Made by a program: the position numbers and the translations under genes. The notes below the pieces were generated by a model. The model was given only the letters and a program-made list of their open reading frames with translations. It ran no database searches and was not told the origin of the DNA. Shown here one piece after another: positions 22,561 to 59,055 of a stretch of 64,000 nucleotides of DNA (within the stretch, counting starts at the first letter, position 1; each line of letters begins with the position of its first letter). This stretch comes from Eledone cirrhosa (Eukaryota): contig OZ024742.1 of the NCBI GenBank assembly GCA_964016885.1, positions 77,438,001-77,502,000 of the forward strand, given 5' to 3'.

Positions 22561-23070
22561 ATATATCTATCTATCTATATATATATAATAGTCGTTTTAG
22601 AAGCCACTACAATTCAGATGGATAAATCTCCGGGTAACAAAATCAGGTGACAGTAGGAGAGAGAAAAGTAGAAATGGCGTAAAAATAGACGTAGAGAACG
22701 TAAAAAGAAAACTAGAAATATACTTTCCTTGGAAGAGAGTTATTATATATGTGTACATGTTGTGTATATATATATATGTGTGTGCATGTGTGTTTGTTTC
22801 AGACTCTGTGTGTGTATGCTTGTGTATGTTTTTGCATGTGTGTGTGTGTGTAAGCCGGTGTGAATTAGAATAAGGTGGCGATTGAAAATTTATGGTAAAC
22901 TGAATTAGATGTTTTCAGCGTCTGGCGACTACAGATTATAATCTAATATTATTGAATGCTAATGCCCATTGTTTCCTTTATGGGTCATCATGTGACTTAA
23001 TACTAAAGTATTTTCTGTAGTCAATGCGCGGTAAAAGCTTCTTTTTATATTTTATATATATATATATATA

Positions 23071-23963
23071 ATAAATCATGTCTATAGAATTATTAGATAA
23101 ATAAAATATATACCATTTCCTCTGCCAATCAGCATAATTAACCATATAAAAAATCAATTAGACCAAGCTATAAGGATAAAGGCTCCTATGAAGAAATCTC
23201 CGACAAATAACCGAAAGTGGCCTCTTCGCGGTGGCCCCAATAGAGTATTTATCCAACATTTCGACAGCATGTAGAAACTGACTAAATATACAATCAACCA
23301 TACACAATTAGGTATAAATTCAAACTAAGAAGAAATGTGTACATACCGTAACTATATCCCTACCATGGTTTCATCCGTATGTTTAGATATCCTATTAATA
23401 GGAAATCCACAGAGTTCGGATTCATCAGGAGACAAACTCAAAAAAATAGACACTTAGTTTCCCAAAGTGATCGCGCCAAAACTAGATTAAAAAATGGCTA
23501 AGAACCGTATCATGGCTGTGGTCAAGTTGGAAAGAATGTGATTAGTTGCTTACGGCGGGTAGGCTTGTTGCTAGAAAGCGCAGCCAAATATCGCCAAATT
23601 GTATATCAACCTAACGGGAGATTATTAAATATAAAGGTTTACATATACATAAAGTTATATATGTTTGTCAGTTTCTACATGCTGTCGAAATGTTGGATAA
23701 ATACTCTATTGGAGCCACCGCGAAGAGGCCACTTTCGGTTATTTGTCGGAGATTTCTTCATAGGAGCCTTTATCCTTATAGCTTGGTCTAATTGATTTTT
23801 TACATGGTTAATTATGCTGATTGGCAGAGGAAATGGTATATATTTTATTTATCTAATAATTCTATAGACATGATTTATGATATATTGCTCTGATTATTTA
23901 ATTTATTAATTCTTCATAGAGCCACAAAGTGACCGGTTGCAACTTTATGTATATGTAAACCTT

Positions 23964-23968
<5 letters not shown>
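23071..23968. repeat. ORF-less unit of about 648 bp present as two opposed, circularly permuted arms between (TA)n tracts
   Basis: 23667-23878 is the reverse complement of 23071-23282; 23941-23968 is the reverse complement of 23629-23656. Confidence 0.85.
23357..23432 (-). ncRNA. Type I hammerhead ribozyme with an extended stem II
   Basis: tctc-CTGATGA-ATCCG...CGGAT-GAAAC CATG GTA-ggga; inner hairpin gatttcctattaataggatatc. Confidence 0.85.
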
Positions 23969-23995
<27 letters not shown>

Positions 23996-24009
23996 ATATA
24001 TACATACAT

Positions 24010-25340
24010 CCTATACCGTCCTCCCTCATGATGACAGCCTCCGCGCTCCCCAACATTCTTTATATTTACGCCCTATCACTTACACCATTACTACCTCTCT
24101 TCTCTGTCAGGCCGAGCTTGATCTGACCCTCAATGGATTTTTTTTTTCTGGTGAATTTGATCAGCAGGTCTCTGGGGTAGCGATGGGAACGAGAATGGGT
24201 CCCAACTATGCCAACTTGTTTGTTGGCTACGTCGAAGCCCAGATCTTCTCCCAGTACGCTGGACCGACTCCTGAGCTATACATTCGTTATATCGACGACT
24301 GTATCGGCGCCATCTCTCTATCACGAGAACAGCTCGACTGTTTTCTTTCTTTTGTCCAATCTTTCCATCCTGCTCTCAATTTCACCTCCTCCGTCTCCGA
24401 TTCTTGTCTCTTTTCTAGATATCTCTCTATCTATTAATCACTCTCACCACACCCTCTCTACTTCCATATTCATTAAACCAACCCGACTCCCAATCTTACT
24501 TCGACTTCACTTCATCCCATCCAACCCACACCCAACACTCCATACCCTATTCCCAATTCCTCCGTTTTCGTCGAGTCTAAAGCCAGGACGACGATTTCGA
24601 AACCCATTCCCTTCGCATGGCTTTCTGCTTCATCCAGCATGTATATCCCCCCACCCTGATCTAAGCGGCTCTCACCCGCGCCTGTGAAACAGATCGCACC
24701 GCAGCCCGCTCACCTCAACCCCGCGCTCCCAACACCCACGTTCCTTTCCCTCTCTCCTAACACCCTATCACCCTACCACTTGGCCAATATATCCTCCGTT
24801 CCTTCCGCATCCTATTTTCTTACGCCATTATTTCGCGCTTTTTCCAAATCCACCTTTTAAGCGGACCCGCAAACTCCGCGACCTCCTGGTACGCAGTTGC
24901 TTCTCGTCCTCTCCGACGACTCCACCCGGCTCTCATCCTCGTTCCCGTTCACGCTGCAAAACTTGTCCCTTCATTTCCACCCTCACCACTCTTACAGGTC
25001 CTAACGGTCTTTCCGTATTCGCCAATCGTTCACCTGCACATCCACCCACGTTGTCTATGCCCGCCCGTGTTCCCTTTACATGTCTTTATATATCGGATAA
25101 ACGGGACGCCGTATGATTGACCGTTTTGCCGAGTATTGGAAGGACATACGACTTGGTTTCGATACTCCTCTCGCCCGTCATTTCTGTTCTCCTGGTAATT
25201 CTTCCCTACATGTTTCAGTCCTGGGTGTCCTTTTACATCATGGATCACAGGCCTCGTGCATCAGGACTGAACAAAGTCTGATACACCGCCTTGTGTCCTA
25301 TTCCCTTCTTGGTCTCAACTCGCATCCCCAATTTCTCTAA
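24010..25340 (+). pseudogene. PLE (Neptune-like) RT core to GIY-YIG, disrupted
   Basis: QVSGVAMGTRMGPNYANLFVGYVE, RYIDD, SFLDI, CKTCPFI, YIG*TGRRMIDRFAEY. Confidence 0.9.
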
Positions 25341-25484
25341 TACCCCGTCCATTATCACACCCCTAGATTCCTATAGTTTCTCTTGATCATTAAAATCTTC
25401 TTATGGATGGACCTGCTATTTTATCTAAAGACATCTTTTCCAATTCCAACCCGCTCATCCCCTCAATATATTTTATTTTTCATT

Positions 25485-25519
25485 CTCTCTTCTGATGGAG
25501 GACTAGCGTCCGAAACGTT

Positions 25520-25520
<1 letters not shown>
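25485..25520 (+). ncRNA. Hammerhead remnant at the PLE 3' end, abutting (TA)n
   Basis: CTGATGG-A-GGAC tagc GTCC-GAAACGTT, then the microsatellite. Confidence 0.65.
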
Positions 25521-26377
<857 letters not shown>

Positions 26378-27883
26378 AGATTACAATAATCAAAGTTCAG
26401 TTTAAGTCATTTATTTGCTTACAATTGTTTCCTCCAAACCGAGGTTTGGATTGTTCGGAGCAACTATTTACTGATCTATAACATACTTGACCTCATTTTC
26501 AACCCAAGAGACACATAAAACATATGCGCATATTGCTCAATAGTGGGGTGACATTCATCAAATGATATAGCATGGCAATTTACATATAAAGGTTACAGGA
26601 TAAAAATAAAATAAAAACAAGAATGAAAATAAAGATAAACATGAAGCGTTGGCTGTCTATGAAAATAAAGCAAGAGGAAAGCTTAGAGTAGTCAGTGTAT
26701 GAAACAATCTAACGTGTAGTATGCACGCGTGTCTTATTTATACATGATTAAAGTGCGTCAGAATGATATTTGCAGGGTCAGGCAGTTGAAGCAGGCAATC
26801 GATCTTATTATGTGGGCTGAAATATTAAGTCATTTATTCTCATACATCTGTATGATATACAGTCTCGGATGCAGGGAAACAACAAAATATCAAAAACTTT
26901 CAACATACTATAAACCTTATTGTATCGTAGGCAAAGCCGTACCACTGTCTTCGCTCACACCACCACTCACATAATCCATGAGACGCAATATATATAGAGA
27001 ACACGTGTCTATCGTATAATTCGCGGTGGTTCAGCATATAATCAAGCTGTAAACCGCATCCAGTCGGTTCTTAATTAATAGATCATGCTGTCCAGATTCC
27101 GGAAGTGTCTGAATGACTAAGGGGAATTAATGCGTAAGGGGGGGTAACTAGCTAGTTATCTTAGTTAAATTTAACTAAGATAACTAGCTAGTAACCTCCC
27201 CTTACGCATTAATTCCCCTTAGTCATTCAGACATTTCCGGAATCTGGACAGCATGATCTATTAATTAAGAACCGACTGGATACGGTTTATAGCTTGATTA
27301 TATGCTGAACCACCGCGAATTATACGATAGACACGTGTTCTCTATATATATTGCGTCTCATGGATTATGTGAGTGGTGGTGTGAGCGAAGACAGTGGTAC
27401 GGCTTTGCCTACGATACAATAAGGTTTATAGTATGTTGAAAGTTTTTGATATTTTAGTGTTTCCCTGCATCCGAGACTGTATATCATACAGATGTATGAG
27501 AATAAATGACTTAATATTTCAGCCCACATAATAAGATCGATTGCCTGCTTCAACTGCCTGACCCTGCAAATATCATTCTGACGCACTCTAATCATGTATA
27601 AATAAGACACGCGTGCATACTACACGTTAGATTGTTTCATACACTGACTACTCTAAGCTTTCCTCTTGCTTTATCTTCATAGACAGCCAACGCTTCATGT
27701 TTATCTTTATTTTCATTCTTGTTTTTATTTTATTTTTATCCTGTAACCTTTATATGTAAATTGCCATGCTATATCATTTGATGAATGTCACCCCACTGTT
27801 GATCAATGCGCATATTGCGCATATGTTTTATGTGTCTCTTGGGTTGAAAAGGAGGTCAAGTATCTTATAGATCAGTAAATAGC

Positions 27884-27930
27884 TGCTCCGAAGAATCCAA
27901 ACCTCGGTTTGGAGGAAACAATTGTAAGCA
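27884..27930 (+). ncRNA. Hammerhead ribozyme in the 5' pLTR (U4C core variant)
   Basis: tgct-CCGAAGA-aTCCAAACC tc GGTTTGGAg-GAAAC AATT GTA-agca. Confidence 0.8.
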
Positions 27931-28184
27931 AATAAATGACTTAAACTGAACTTTGATTATTGTAATCTCTATATAACTGCTCTGTAAAACAACTGATGGT
28001 ATTACATTGAGCTATTTATCTTACTGGTAATAGGATAGTAATTAATGACTATCTTTCACTATTTAGGGTTTGTATATATAATATATTACCATTAAAGGTA
28101 TTATTGCATACATAACTATAAATAGTACAATTAATACTAATAACTGCTCCATTTTGTTGAGCTGATATACCATAAATTACCAGC

Positions 28185-31482: not shown

Positions 31483-33008
31483 TAATGTCAGACTGGAACC
31501 GGCACCACCCCTAGCAATTAACATCAGTAGCACACCTTACACCTCACATCCACACCCATCTCTATACTCTAAAGATAATACTGACAGCATTTTAGTACCA
31601 CCTACCCTGGGAATATCCCCTTGTACCTCTAATTCTGATATCTCGACCGTGGACTACTTATTCTGCATTGCACAAATATAAGATTGGTATAAACTGGGGA
31701 CACGGTACTGGTTGCGATAACATAGTCCTGTGCATGGATTCCCACCAAGAGATAGATTGATGATTAGATAGATAATCGTATTGTTATGTGAATATATACT
31801 GTAAACGATCAGTTCAATGAATTATGCACGTAATCATCTTGATGTGAACTCCTTTAATACCTATTAATAGACTCCACTCTAGCTTGTAGATGTGATACTT
31901 AATTGATTTATATATGAGACGGGGGTTGTCTATTGCTTTATGACCAGACTAGTGCCTTTATATGAGAGATTGGATCTCCGGACCATACCGAAGATTTACT
32001 GGAGATCCAGACATGCAGTGACCCGGAGTCTACCGGGTGGCATATATAATAGTGGGACCATACGAGGTCCTACTGTTATATTACATTTGCATGGAACAGT
32101 GACTTGAGAGTCTGACTCCTCTTATAGAATGTTCAGATATGACACCCCTTAATGGATGGTAATCATCCTAATATATACACCCTTGTACTTCTTAATGGAC
32201 AACTCTCTAACCTATAAATGGGTAACATACTCTAGAAATTAGTTATAACTTCATATGATAGGCACGTATTTGAATCACCATTAATGTAGTTTAGGATAGT
32301 AACTTAACTAAGATAACTAGCTAGTTACCTCCCCTTACGCATTAATTCCCTTAGTCATTCAGACACTTCCGGAATCTGGACAGCATGATCTATTAATTAA
32401 GAACCGACTGGATACGGTTTATAGCTTGATTATATGCTGAACCACCGCGAATTATACGATAGACACGTGTTCTCTATATATATTGCGTCTCATGGATTAT
32501 GTGAGTGGTGGTGTGAGCGAAGACAGTGGTACGGCTTTGCCTACGATACAATAAGGTTTATAGTATGTTGAAAGTTTTTGATATTTTGGTGTTTCCCTGC
32601 ATCCGAGACTGTATATCATACAGATGTATGAGAATAAATGACTTAATATTTCAGCCCACATAATAAGATCGATTGCCTGCTTCAACTGCCTGACCCTGCA
32701 AATATCATTCTGACGCACTCTAATCATGTATAAATAAGACACGCGTGCATACTACACGTGAGATTGTTTCATACACTGACTACTCTAAGCTTTCCTCTTG
32801 CTTTATCTTCATAGACTGCCAACGCTTCATGTTTATCTTTATTTTCATTCTTGTTTTTATTTTATTTTTATCCTGTAACCTTTATATGTAAATTGCCATG
32901 CTATATCATTTGATGAATGTCATCCCACTGTTGATCAATATGCGCATATGTTTTATGTGTCTCTTGGGTTGAAAAGGAGGTCAAGTATGTTATAGATCAG
33001 TAAATAGC

Positions 33009-33055
33009 TGCTCCGAAGAATCCAAACCTCGGTTTGGAGGAAACAATTGTAAGCA
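33009..33055 (+). ncRNA. Hammerhead ribozyme in the 3' pLTR
   Basis: Identical to 27884-27930. Confidence 0.8.
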
Positions 33056-33259
33056 AATAAATGACTTAAACTGAACTTTGATTATTGTAATCTCTATATA
33101 ACTGCTCTGTAAAACAACTGATGGTATTACATTGAGCTATTTATCTTACTGGTAATAGGATAGTAATTAATGACTATCTTTCACTATTTAGGGTTTGTAT
33201 ATATAATATATTACCATTAAAGGTTTTATTGCATGCATAACCATAAATAGTACCCTTAA

Positions 33260-33301
<42 letters not shown>

Positions 33302-33305
<4 letters not shown>

Positions 33306-34200
33306 GACGCAAAATAAGAAAATTTTAAAAATTAAAAATCAACTTACTTACTAAAATTGATATGGGTTCCTAGTGTCCGCGCATTTCCTGGGAATTTAGC
33401 TGAGAATAGACTCCCTGATGACGTAAGGAATTCTCTATAGTTATGTTACGTAACTATAATTATGCCCTTACAGAAAATAATTAGTTGGAGGGAAAATTTT
33501 AGTAAGAAAGTTGATTTTTAATTTGTTAAATTTTCTTATTTTACGTCTTTCATATAATTGTTCTGCATCCCCCTGCATAGAACCACAAAGGAACTAATAC
33601 ATAACATATATATTTGCTAGCATGGGTATACATCTGTATACATATGTTGGTAGATATACTAATTCTCTATTTTTATCTCCAAATTATTTGTTGAGTAAAA
33701 CTTGCCAACATTTACTGCTGTGATTCATGGTAGTAGTAGGCTCTTGTCATAATACCACCCCACTCTTCACTGATTAACCTCAGTGTCACGTGATTGATTC
33801 TTTAGAATCTGCCACTGACCAAAGAGGCAGTGAATTTTTTCAGTGCTTTGGAATTTAGTCTCCGCTAGCTTTATTCCATCAACTGAATTATTATTTTTAT
33901 ATGGGTTCCTAGTTTCCGCGCATTGCCTGGGAACTTAGCTGAGAATAGACTCCCTGATGACGTAAGGAATTCTCTATAGTTATGTTACGTAACTATATTT
34001 ATCCCCTCACAGAAACTAATTAGTTTGAATGAACATTTTAGTAAGTAAGTTGATTTTTAATTTTTAAAATTTTCTGATTTTACGACTTTCATATAATTGT
34101 TCTGCATCCCCCTGCATAGAACCACAAAGGTACTAAGACATAACATATATATTTGCTAGCATGGGTATACATCTGTATACATATGTTGGTAGATATACTA

Positions 34201-41454: not shown

Positions 41455-42445
41455 AGAGTCTTGACGTTTCGGACACTAGTCGTTCATAAGAAGAAAGATT
41501 CAGAAATAAAATAGATTGAGGAGATGGGCGGGATGGAATTGGGAAAAAATGTATTTAGATAAAAATAACAGGTCCATTCATGTTGACATCTCTTGCTGCT
41601 GGCGTTTTGTGTATGATTTGTTTTTTAGAAAAGTGTATGATGGAGCGTGCCTACCTGAAATGGAAAAATAAACCGTTTTGGAAAAAGAGCTATAGTTGAG
41701 CACGTGCGTCAGCATGTGTTTGTGTGTGTATGTGTATGTCTGTGTGCGCGTGTATGTGTTCGTGTGTGTGCGTGTGTTATTATAGGTCCGTACGAAGTTA
41801 AGAAGAAATATGTGTGTATATGTGAGTAAAAGAGTGTGTGTGTGTGTATGTATGTACGAAGCTATGACCAAAAGTATGTTAATATGAGGGTGTGAATCGG
41901 CATGTATTACTTGTAAGAGAAGCTGCTAATGCTCAAGAAAAAGCGATAGGAATCTAGGGGTGTGATAATGGAATTACAGAAATTGCGGAGGTGAGTCGAG
42001 TCCAAGAAGGGAATAGGACCCAAGGCGGTGAATCAGACTTTCTTTAGTCCTGGTGCGTGAGGCCTGTGATCCATGATGTAAAAGGACACCCAGGACTGAA
42101 ACATGTAGGGAGGAATAACCAGGAGAACAGAAATGACGGGCGACAGGAGTATCCAAACCGAGTCGTATGTCCCTCAAATATTCAGCAAAACGGTCCGCCA
42201 TACGGCGTCCCTTTTGTTCGATATATAAAGACCCGGAAAGGGAACAGTGGAGGTCATAGACAACTTGGGTGGATGTGCAGGTGAAGGAATGGCGAATACG
42301 GAAAGACCATTAGGGCCTGTAAGAGTGGTGAGGATGGAAATAATGGGAAAATTGTTGCAGCGGTAACGGGAACAAGGATGAGAGCCGGGTGGAGTCGTGG
42401 CAGAGGAAAAAATGGAACTGCGAAGCAGGAGGTCGCAGAGGTTGC
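41455..42445 (-). pseudogene. Second, fragmented copy of the 24-25.5 kb PLE family (GIY-YIG and pLTR with an HHR at about 41459-41495)
   Basis: DRFAEYLRDIRLGLDTPVARHF matches the 25113 ORF; tctt-CTTATGA-acGAC tagt GTCc-GAAACGTC-aaga. Confidence 0.85.
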
Positions 42446-42462
42446 GGGGGAATGGTTAAAAG

Positions 42463-54058: not shown

Positions 54059-54107
54059 GATTCTACAGGACTAGAACTGTTTCATTCATAAGAAATCATC
54101 AGGAATC
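54059..54107 (-). ncRNA. Type I hammerhead ribozyme
   Basis: gattc-CTGATGA-tTTC ttat GAAt-GAAACAG ttctagtc CTGTA-gaatc; all three stems form. Confidence 0.85.
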
Positions 54108-54514
54108 TGGGTATCAAAAAATAAATATGGTATTATTAGGTCTCTACAAGTGGTAGGAGAGGGTGGGGAGTGGGATGGGTGCAGGTCATTGGTTGATAGA
54201 AAAGGGAATTCATTAAAAGCTAATTCTACAAAGCTATAGTTTATTTTTATTTATTTATGTTTTTAGAGTAACAAGGGCAGACAGAATTCTATAAACAGGT
54301 TCCGGATGGCATACCATTCCTTGTCATTAAGTTTCTCTTAAGCTAACAGGTGTCTATAAAATCAGTGGGGGGTCAGTCATGGTCGATAGAATTAAAGAAA
54401 AGGGAGATTCTTTAAAAGCTAAAATCATTAAGGTTCTACTAAGTGACAAAGGTCTAGAGAATTCTGCAGACAGATTCAAAATACTGAGTGCATATCTTAC
54501 TATTATCTTCGAAC

Positions 54515-55138
54515 TTCTAATTTCTGCCGGACCGGCAACCGCTCTTTCAAACCAGTTCCTGTACACAGCTAAGTATTCTATAAGTCTCTAGCTGTGTCAT
54601 TCTCGATAAAAGCATTGGATATGTAATCCTGATGATTTCAAATAAGAATGAAACGCGTAGGTTACTTCCCTTGCTTTTATCGAGAATCTCGAATTGTAAT
54701 ACGTGACGTATTCTATTCTATAGCGATTAGGTCTTCAAAATGTTTATTATAAACATACAGAATATTTTCGAATATTCTATGCTTGTCTTCACATATATAT
54801 CGCTATTTCAGAGCATTAAATCCAAATTCTAATTTCTGCCGGACCGGCAACCGCTCTTTCAAACCACTTCCTGTACACAGCTAAGTATTCTATAAGTCTC
54901 TAGCTGTGTCATTCTCGATAAAAGCATTGGATATGTAATCCTGATGATTTCAAATAAGAATGAAACGCGTAGGTTACTTCCCTTGCTTTTATCGAGAATC
55001 TCGAATTGTAATACGTGACGTATACTATTCTATAGCGATTAGGTCTTCAAAATGTTTATTATAAACATACAGAATATTTTCGAATATTCTATGTTTGTCT
55101 TCACATATATATCGCTATTTCAGAGCATTAAATCCAAA
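54515..55138 (+). repeat. 312 bp unit x2, each with a type I HHR (54623-54665 and 54935-54977); retrozyme-like
   Basis: gtaatc-CTGATGA-tTTC aaataa GAAt-GAAAC GC GTA-ggttac. Confidence 0.9.
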
Positions 55139-55329
55139 TATATATATATATATATAAATATATATATATATACATACACACATATACATACATACACACA
55201 TACATATACACAGACACATATATATACATATATACACACATATATACACACATACACACACATATATATATATATATGTGTGTGTGTATGTGTATGTATG
55301 TATATGTGTGTACACACACCTGCCCACAC

Positions 55330-57650: not shown

Positions 57651-59055
57651 CAATTAAGTTAAAGTGTACATCTACATATGTATACGGAAGTATTAGTATG
57701 CATATAAATACACACATGTATACATATGTACATGTACTCAGCTTTTCACTAGACACTTTACAGTGAGTGTCAGCTAGTCTGTATGTAACCACACAGGCGG
57801 ACCGGGTTTTAGAGTCATACGAGTTTACATGTGTGTATTTATATGCATACTAATACTTCCGTATACATATGTAGATGTACACTTTAACTTAATTGTTTAA
57901 GCGTCAGTCATACAAAAGTGAGTTAGAAGCGAAACGAAATTTAATTTCGTTTCGTTATTTGTTTTTATCGTTTCCGCTGAACCGGTGCGTACAATGACTC
58001 ACGTTCTATGCAAATTGGTCTACCCACTACTAATTTTCATAGAAAAAGCATATAACGATATGTGCTTTTACAATTCTCCAGAGAAGCCGGAAGATGGGTA
58101 AATATTGCTGATGAGATGTAATAACATCGAAACTAGTCCAATATTCCTGTCTGGCCCTCCGGGGAATAGAGGAAATGTGTTTCCTTGATAACTCGTATGA
58201 CTCTAAAACCCGGTCCGCCAGTGTGGTTACATACAGACTAGCTGACACTCACTGTAAAGTGTCTAGTGAAAAGCTGAGTACATGTACATATGTATACATG
58301 TGTGTATTTATATGCATACTAATACTTCCGTATACATATGTAGATGTACACTTTAACTTAATTGTTTAAGCGTCAGTCATACAAAAGTGAGTTAGAAGCG
58401 AAACGAAATTTAATTTCGTTTCGTTATTTGTTTTTATCGTTTCCGCTGAACCGGTGCGTACAATGACTCACGTTCTATGCAAATTGGTCTACCCACTACT
58501 AATTTTCATAGAAAAAGTATATAACGATATGTGCTTTTACAATTCTCCAGAGAAGCCGAAGATGGGTAAATATTGCTGATGAGATGTAATAACATCGAAA
58601 CTAGTCCAACATTCCTGTCTGGCCCTCTGCAGAATAGAGGAAATGTGTTTCCTTGAAAACTCGTATGACTCTAAAACCCGGTCCGCCTGTGTGGTTACAT
58701 ACAGACTAGCTGACACTCACTGTAAAGTGTCTAGTGAAAAGCTGAGTATATGTACATATGTATACATGTGTGTATTTATATGCATACTAATACTTCCGTA
58801 TACATATGTAGATGTACACTTTAACTTAATTGTTTAAGCGTCAGTCATACAAAAGTGAGTTAGAAGCGAAACGAAATTTAATTTCGTTTCGTTATTTGTT
58901 TTTATCGTTTCCGCTGAACCAGTGCGTACAATGACTCACGTTCTATGCAAATTGGTCTACCCACTACTAATTTTCATAGAAAAAGCTTATAACGATATGT
59001 GCTTTTACAATTCTCCAGAGAAGCCGGAAGATGGGTAAATATTGCTGATGAGATG
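57650..59055 (+). repeat. 469 bp HHR-bearing unit x at least 2.6 with an inverted left arm (57650-57825); runs into an assembly gap
   Basis: HHRs start at 58101, 58569 and 59038 (the last is cut by Ns). Confidence 0.9.
58101..58145 (+). ncRNA. Canonical type I hammerhead ribozyme
   Basis: aatattg-CTGATGA-GATGT aata ACATC-GAAAC TA GTC-caatatt; 7 bp stem I and 5 bp stem II. Confidence 0.92.

Follow-up and report, generated by a model that had tools for sequence, protein, structure and literature searches.

A non-coding, hammerhead-bearing repeat with paired start sites in TA microsatellites of Eledone cirrhosa

The closest described systems to the repeat considered here are the metazoan non-LTR retrozymes (Cervera and de la Pena, 2020, PMC7229834; Li, Clavereau and Pollet, 2026, bioRxiv 10.64898/2026.07.22.740005) and the Penelope-like elements (PLEs). 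In the portions of these accounts available to us, the former are non-coding, AT-rich tandem units of 150-450 bp (PMC7229834) or 51-972 bp (bioRxiv 10.64898/2026.07.22.740005) with one type I hammerhead each; they amount to thousands of motifs in genomes that also hold PLEs, and those of coral, mussel and axolotl form circles (PMC7229834). Our comparators among the PLEs are the Poseidon element PAc (Frangieh et al., 2024, PMC11167929) and the insertion layout set out by Craig et al. (2021, PMC8557442). According to the available parts of these two papers, the PLE protein nicks and extends both strands and starts at two internal RNA sites bounding the tail (PMC11167929), and the insertions comprise a partial tandem, an inverted 5' copy, a tail on one end and a TA target (PMC8557442). 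The origin of such tandem and inverted insertions and the role of the hammerhead are treated there as open questions (PMC8557442, PMC11167929).

Here we analyse a window of 64,000 nucleotides from the contig designated C3 of the 3.0-Gb genome of Eledone cirrhosa. It holds a member of a family of non-coding, hammerhead-bearing 657-nt repeats, which, on balance, seem to be inserted into TA microsatellites by a Penelope-type reverse transcriptase/endonuclease from one RNA, probably a circular one. Judged from its genomic copies, the family appears to have the features of a non-LTR retrozyme and to work like a PLE insertion, while being no coding PLE. The element class is already known; what the 657-nt family adds is a counted excess of ends at the ribozyme cut site and the limit that this cut sets on the partner arm. 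It turns the above questions into countable DNA footprints, namely paired start sites, cut-site stops and cut-limited partner arms. In a search of largely open-access literature, we found no paper on the 657-nt family, which is possibly catalogued in Repbase or Dfam, and none that describes retrozymes with paired start sites and stops at the cut.

The locus and its repeat family

The insertion in the window is made up of two opposed arms, which end at a main start site (M) and a tail start site (T), between TA microsatellite flanks:

23045..23070, unstranded: left (TA)n target flank
23064..23662, minus strand (ribozyme sense): left arm, 599 nt, 5'-truncated, with its 3' end at M
23110..23300 (approximate limits), minus strand: long rod (predicted) that lies between M and the cut site
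23355..23434, minus strand: type I hammerhead of the left arm, core intact, 6-bp stem I
23658..23662, unstranded: head-to-head junction, a 5-nt overlap (TATAT) common to both arms
23658..23971, plus strand: right arm, 314 nt, with its 3' end at T
23879..23971, plus strand: tail, the M-to-T stretch that closes the unit, 92 nt here against 101 nt in the family
23965..24003, unstranded: right (TA)n target flank

The left arm runs across the unit junction as well as the hammerhead cut site; the right arm, which carries a 9-nt deletion private to this copy, ends about 70 nt before reaching the cut site. The preliminary description of this DNA had noticed that the right arm passes through the start of the left arm, adds 62 new nucleotides (23879-23940) and then continues with the reverse complement of the left-arm end (23941-23968 versus 23629-23656). 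All of this was borne out, the match to the start of the left arm covering 231 nt at 97.4% and the last match being identical at 28/28 positions and extending to 31 nt with one mismatch, and chance is ruled out by the recurrence of the same junction in other genomic copies. Its conclusion that the unit closes on itself at about 648 nt was right as to the closure and needed correction as to the length: the best other copies cover the unit junction over 157-158 nt for a 149-nt query, that is, with 9 more bases, and hence the family unit is about 657 nt.

A genome search with the unit brought up 4506 candidates, and the 40 of these that were scored gave 68 matches. Hammerhead patterns gave 110 matches genome-wide in an exact form and 3453 in a broad one (some counted twice), as against 1 in a reversed control, and all 17 loci mapped from the broad pattern carry the 657-nt unit at 68-94% identity. 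There is a 688-nt sister family with homologous ends, 72% identical to the 657-nt unit, and a subfamily (loci L288-L316) in which the cut site reads GUC and the period is close to 690 nt. The true head-to-tail arrays that the preliminary description had proposed to search for in the genome do exist, with 1.8-3.1 units (3.1 in L031) and, in one case, about 45 units. On C12 (17.02-17.48 Mb; L118, L119), one four-hammerhead insertion is found eight times, mostly with 60-kb spacing, as a result of segmental duplication. Short matches of 45-51 nt to the M end, considered as another element, are truncated stubs in TA.

The unit has a GC content of 34% and, as had been stated before, no ORF: in a natural dimer the longest stop-to-stop frames are 65 aa in sense and 127 aa in antisense. 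The latter was rejected as a gene, being unconserved and open in 11 of 95 copies. Frame-breaking indels separate the 657-nt unit from its 688-nt sister family, and the 97-aa piece of the antisense frame present in the window has no Pfam match. With the metazoan non-LTR retrozymes, as far as their available descriptions go, the family shares the non-coding AT-rich tandem unit, the single type I hammerhead, the thousands of motifs and the presence of PLEs in the same genome; its unit length is above the range of PMC7229834 and within that of bioRxiv 10.64898/2026.07.22.740005.

Directly downstream of the insertion, in the same TA tract, lies a broken PLE (window 24010-25520), 5'-truncated and frameshifted, with an RT motif, a CxxC linker, a GIY-YIG remnant and its own hammerhead-like end near 25430-25520; a second copy of it, about 86% identical, is at 41464-42448. 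The presence of this neighbour, the match of the insertion layout to that of PLEs in the accessible part of PMC8557442, and the resemblance of animal retrozymes to the terminal repeats of PLEs (pLTRs) in that of bioRxiv 10.64898/2026.07.22.740005 are what might be expected if the unit were merely the pLTR of a coding PLE and its copies 5'-truncated stubs, an alternative that the preliminary description had itself raised. We regard this as very improbable, given that in about 200 fetched loci no copy of the unit is fused to a coding PLE. Arms above one unit run into the previous unit and not into an ORF; 41 of the 79 free 5' flanks are TA-rich, with no common continuation at a fixed position, and the two flank pairs that are shared join at different unit positions. 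PLE protein matches near the unit are separate insertions, apart from it or oppositely oriented, and the neighbouring PLE, which ends in a dissimilar hammerhead of its own, does not resemble the unit. An ancestral origin of the unit from a pLTR is possible.

Paired start sites and head-to-head arms

Read in the sense of the ribozyme, the arms end at the two sites M and T, 101 nt apart, where they run into (TA)n, and unlike these fixed 3' ends, their 5' ends are scattered. Exact patterns for the two ends have 501 (M) and 183 (T) matches genome-wide. After removal of overlaps and one segmental duplicate, 190 fetched loci were reduced to 156 distinct ones, in which we counted 91 head-to-head pairs: 71 combine M with T, none combines M with M or T with T, and 20 have a rearranged or truncated end. 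Two apparent T+T pairs (L363, L366) were found to be T+M pairs in which the alignment overruns into TA. The junctions of the pairs have small overlaps or gaps, and the window insertion, with its M arm at 23064-23662, T arm at 23658-23971 and 5-nt overlap, is a typical case of the family. The arms that start at two fixed sites, which constitute the Penelope 'tail' signature, are the main signal and had been overlooked in the preliminary description; they are found together with the remainder of the PLE-type layout, namely the partial tandem, the inverted 5'-truncated copy, the tail on one end and the microsatellite target.

The two sites differ in their dependence on each other. Among C1 loci selected solely on their 3' end (40 T matches yielding 32 loci and 87 M matches yielding 28, taken in succession with one exception and leaving out loci already in the set), 26/32 T-anchored loci have an M partner as opposed to 10/28 M-anchored loci with a T partner. 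This indicates that T ends depend on M, with M being used alone or first and T mostly serving as the second start.

The window abounds in palindromes and microsatellites, and DNA duplication does affect the family, which invites the suspicion that the arms arose by fold-back or duplication at the DNA level or are an artefact of assembly. We give this the least credence of the explanations considered. Fixed paired ends with scattered 5' ends, TA targets and stops at the cut site (see below) recur at dozens of independent loci, the opposite-strand joints are present in independent contigs too, and the pairing of M with T is exclusive. Moreover, the M arm reaches as far as the T arm or beyond in 41 of the 71 pairs, the T arm doing so in 30, so that neither arm is a folded-back copy of the other and the fold-back model is contradicted by their lengths.

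In L1 twin priming, two target-primed cDNAs on one RNA are joined by microhomology into an inversion. The 657-nt family is similar in the apparent joining of two cDNAs on one RNA into an inversion; it differs from L1 in that both primers start at fixed internal sites and in that the stretches copied by the two arms coincide for hundreds of bases.

The similarities to PLEs, as these are presented in the available parts of PMC11167929 and PMC8557442, are more extensive: two start sites that define a tail, extension of both strands, AT-rich or (TA)n targets, partial tandems, an inverted 5'-truncated copy and a hammerhead upstream of the start sites. Unlike PLEs, the 657-nt unit is without an ORF, and its tail measures 101 nt versus 30-40. 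Each arm of a pair strictly uses one site, whereas the accessible account of PAc gives no strand difference in vitro (PMC11167929). Further, the start sites of the 657-nt unit are AT-rich and target-like, while the anole PLE is described as starting at sites non-homologous to the target (PMC11167929, available part).

The hammerhead and the ends at its cut site

The hammerhead of the left arm is intact, as claimed in the preliminary description, with CUGAUGA at 23428-23422 and GAAA at 23372-23369 as its core, and its cut is predicted after GUA, between 23361 and 23360. The long branched stem II of that description is, in 20/20 copies, a single interrupted hairpin; it measures 49 nt in the window and 45-59 nt across the family, and differs in this from the retrozymes described in the sources available to us. 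Stem III is a minimal palindrome, CCAUGG, like that of the axolotl HHR_Amex1 (PMC7229834), a type that the available text presents as most effective as a dimer (PMC4209133, PMC7229834). In Rfam there is no match within the window at the gathering threshold, not even for the hammerhead motif.

For the comparison of structures we aligned 20 copies picked for diversity. Pairs 1-5 of stem II are paired in 18-20 of these, with two-sided changes at 4/5 pairs, and in the long rod 93-99% of cells are paired per helix, with mostly one-sided changes and conservation of the structure across subfamilies. As the structure was derived from the same alignment and the selecting pattern itself favoured pairing in stem II, the covariation of stem II and the rod is support and not proof. 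The rod is a candidate for a reverse-transcriptase binding domain. Taken as a circle, the sense monomer folds better than its shuffled versions (z -3.1, 40 shuffles), as against +1.6 for the antisense, and the hammerhead motif is confined to one strand, there being none on the opposite strand of the window unit. A viroid-like RNA replicon was rejected on the grounds of this single polarity of the hammerhead and of an antisense fold no better than shuffles.

Most end-anchored arms that reach the cut site read through it (41/48), and 7/48 of those reaching this region stop within 15 nt of the cut (p=0.02). To count such ends genome-wide we used a pattern of the first bases after the cut and a preceding non-native base, which has 78 matches. 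The 54 that were examined (the first 30, 20 chosen as likely truncations and 4 more) contain 23 loci truncated exactly at the predicted hammerhead cut and one truncated a few bases above it; nearly all the others have an intact hammerhead upstream, being of the GUC subfamily or point mutants. A control pattern placed 8 nt upstream of the cut has 3 matches, 0 of them truncated. Another placed 11 nt downstream has 8 truncations in 15 matches, and consequently the excess at the cut site is about threefold on that side, though this control begins with the favoured TA, whose overlap with the target makes it draw in several positions. Not one of the 23 cut-stopped arms had already run through another copy of the cut site.

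The partner arms show a corresponding limit. Of the 23 cut-stopped loci, 15 have such an arm, and not one of the 15 crosses the cut, with 8 stopping 4-24 nt short of it; in end-anchored pairs, by comparison, 28/72 arms cross the cut (Fisher p=0.004, with 14 partners in the test). At family-polymorphic sites, divergence between units of one arm is 0.4% versus 7.6% between loci, and true partner arms differ mostly by 0-1.6%, the pooled two-arm value of 1.35% being raised by five loci that contain separate insertions. In the arm of L053 two haplotypes are mixed (9/102 sites), a point against the circle considered below.

The simplest reading of the cut-site stops and of the partners confined by the same cut is that the ribozyme cuts in vivo and that both cDNAs copy one molecule. 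These footprints in genomic DNA thus point to a hammerhead that cuts its RNA in vivo and to one RNA that serves both arms. They are at variance with what is given for PAc, for which the available text has no reads ending at the cut site (PMC11167929), and the available retrozyme descriptions that we compared contain neither cut-site stops nor two-armed insertions with two fixed start sites.

The template, the enzyme and the proposed cycle

These observations can be assembled into a cycle of five steps. Tandem loci would first be transcribed, and the hammerhead would then cut the RNA in vivo, a step that has the DNA footprints in its support. The cut monomers would be ligated into circles, as may be supposed from related retrozymes. 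We infer that a PLE protein next nicks both strands, one nick serving to prime at M and the other at T; of this fourth step, the two fixed start sites and the TA targets are directly observed in the insertions. The two cDNAs would be truncated and their far ends joined, leaving small overlaps or gaps and the observed pattern of head-to-head arms, and the use of M alone would leave a single arm. Most templates would be uncut at the ribozyme, with a minority of cut linear RNAs in which both cDNAs end at or before the cut. In its fullest version, which we put forward tentatively and at somewhat less than even chances, this is a complete retrozyme cycle with in vivo cutting, circularised monomers and a dimeric Penelope-type enzyme that copies one RNA twice at once, each subunit serving a single start site and a single DNA strand. 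If true, such a dimeric-enzyme cycle would explain the tail and the inverted arm of all PLEs and would be in vivo evidence for a PLE-type hammerhead acting on the template of retrotransposition.

With respect to the template, the preliminary description took the closure of the unit as direct evidence for a circle. It cannot serve as such, as the two arms need only 599+101 = 700 nt (1.07 units), and with 13/71 tail arms exceeding one unit plus tail, many linear genomic copies could supply a template of this length. The wider wording 'circular or tandem RNA template' holds as a statement of two alternatives: there are tandem arrays, and the left arm reads across the cut site as well as the junction. 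We consider a circle about twice as probable as a linear RNA to be the main template. In favour of the circle are the read-through of the cut site by 41/48 arms and the above fold of the circular sense monomer. The internal position of the start sites makes a circle usable as a template, and circles have been shown for metazoan retrozymes in the accounts available to us, while the 657-nt family is known here from genomic DNA alone. Further, 79 variants are common to all overlapping segments of one insertion and absent from its nearest neighbours, alongside 501 single variants; such insertion-wide variants would be expected from a monomer bottleneck, in favour of a circle, although they could alternatively come from gene conversion or unsampled subfamilies. 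There is no A-to-G editing bias among these shared variants (12 A>G versus 22 T>C). Read in sense, T>C and G>A changes (36) outnumber A>G and C>T changes (15) among them, unlike among the single variants (137 and 122, respectively); this lean could be due to RT wobble errors, selection on G-U pairs or a wrong polarity.

The read-through at the cut site is equally well accounted for by uncut linear tandem transcripts, and unprocessed RNA is presented as the main substrate of the anole PLE in the available part of PMC11167929. It is conceivable, if rather unlikely, that all templates are linear, either uncut tandem transcripts or hammerhead-cut pieces, with the same two-site priming, circles being absent or a by-product and tandems being renewed by DNA duplication or template jumping. 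The window locus requires just a 1.07-unit template, cut linear RNA was competent as a template at the 23 cut-stopped loci, and DNA-level expansion is demonstrated in one array. As far as the accessible texts go, minimal hammerheads of the PLE type cleave weakly in vitro (PMC4209133) and cleavage is dispensable for the anole PLE (PMC11167929). However, if linear RNAs were copied with 5' truncation, arrays could do no more than become shorter and would be expected to transmit unit-to-unit differences, whereas the units within an arm are homogeneous, with the above 0.4% at family-polymorphic sites, in subfamilies down to about 70% identity. Inspection by eye of 297 sites, 40 of them recurrent, brought up no run of position-specific variants common to insertions, and the sole large array seen is 5.3% heterogeneous.

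That array is the M arm, of about 45 units, of a two-armed insertion (G000:C1:92985500-93016030; L198, L197, L196, L191), the 5.3% being the mean divergence over 42 aligned units. It contains 5- and 6-mer higher-order repeats, which show that it grew by duplication of DNA and exclude a rolling-circle product. It was also rejected as the source of the 2.75-unit insertion L181/L192, which is 6-7% from the nearest array unit. The arm has the appearance of a satellite being born from a retrozyme insertion.

As to the enzyme that would copy the RNA, the genome contains a very young PLE family with 150 near-identical matches, many with 775-aa frames, in which Pfam recognizes RT and GIY-YIG domains. 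Its copies (L227-L256, e.g. L229 2100-3330) have two 3' ends 66 nt apart, with 14 long, 13 short and 3 unread of 30, and its linker, CxxxxCxxC, fits the description of Neptune/Nematis in the available part of PMC8557442. With the short, protein-free RNA of the 657-nt unit and an intact PLE protein both coming from one genome, circular and linear templates could be compared directly. Comparison of the unit with the young family and the neighbouring PLE of the window found AT runs and one 19-nt match (E 0.67) and nothing else; both were accordingly rejected as sequence-related partners. In the hammerhead-like motif of the young PLE the core is variant (UUGAAAA for CUGANGA), stem II is short and stem III is palindromic.

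Other hammerhead-like motifs of the window, at 54500-55140, 58000-58700, 33330-34100 and 54075-54102, occur as pairs 312, 468 and 539 nt apart and as one single motif, and probably represent other retrozyme families. The window also contains a 1.6-kb near-perfect palindrome (97%) at 26371-27975, the arm of which recurs 5 kb away (32301-33264).
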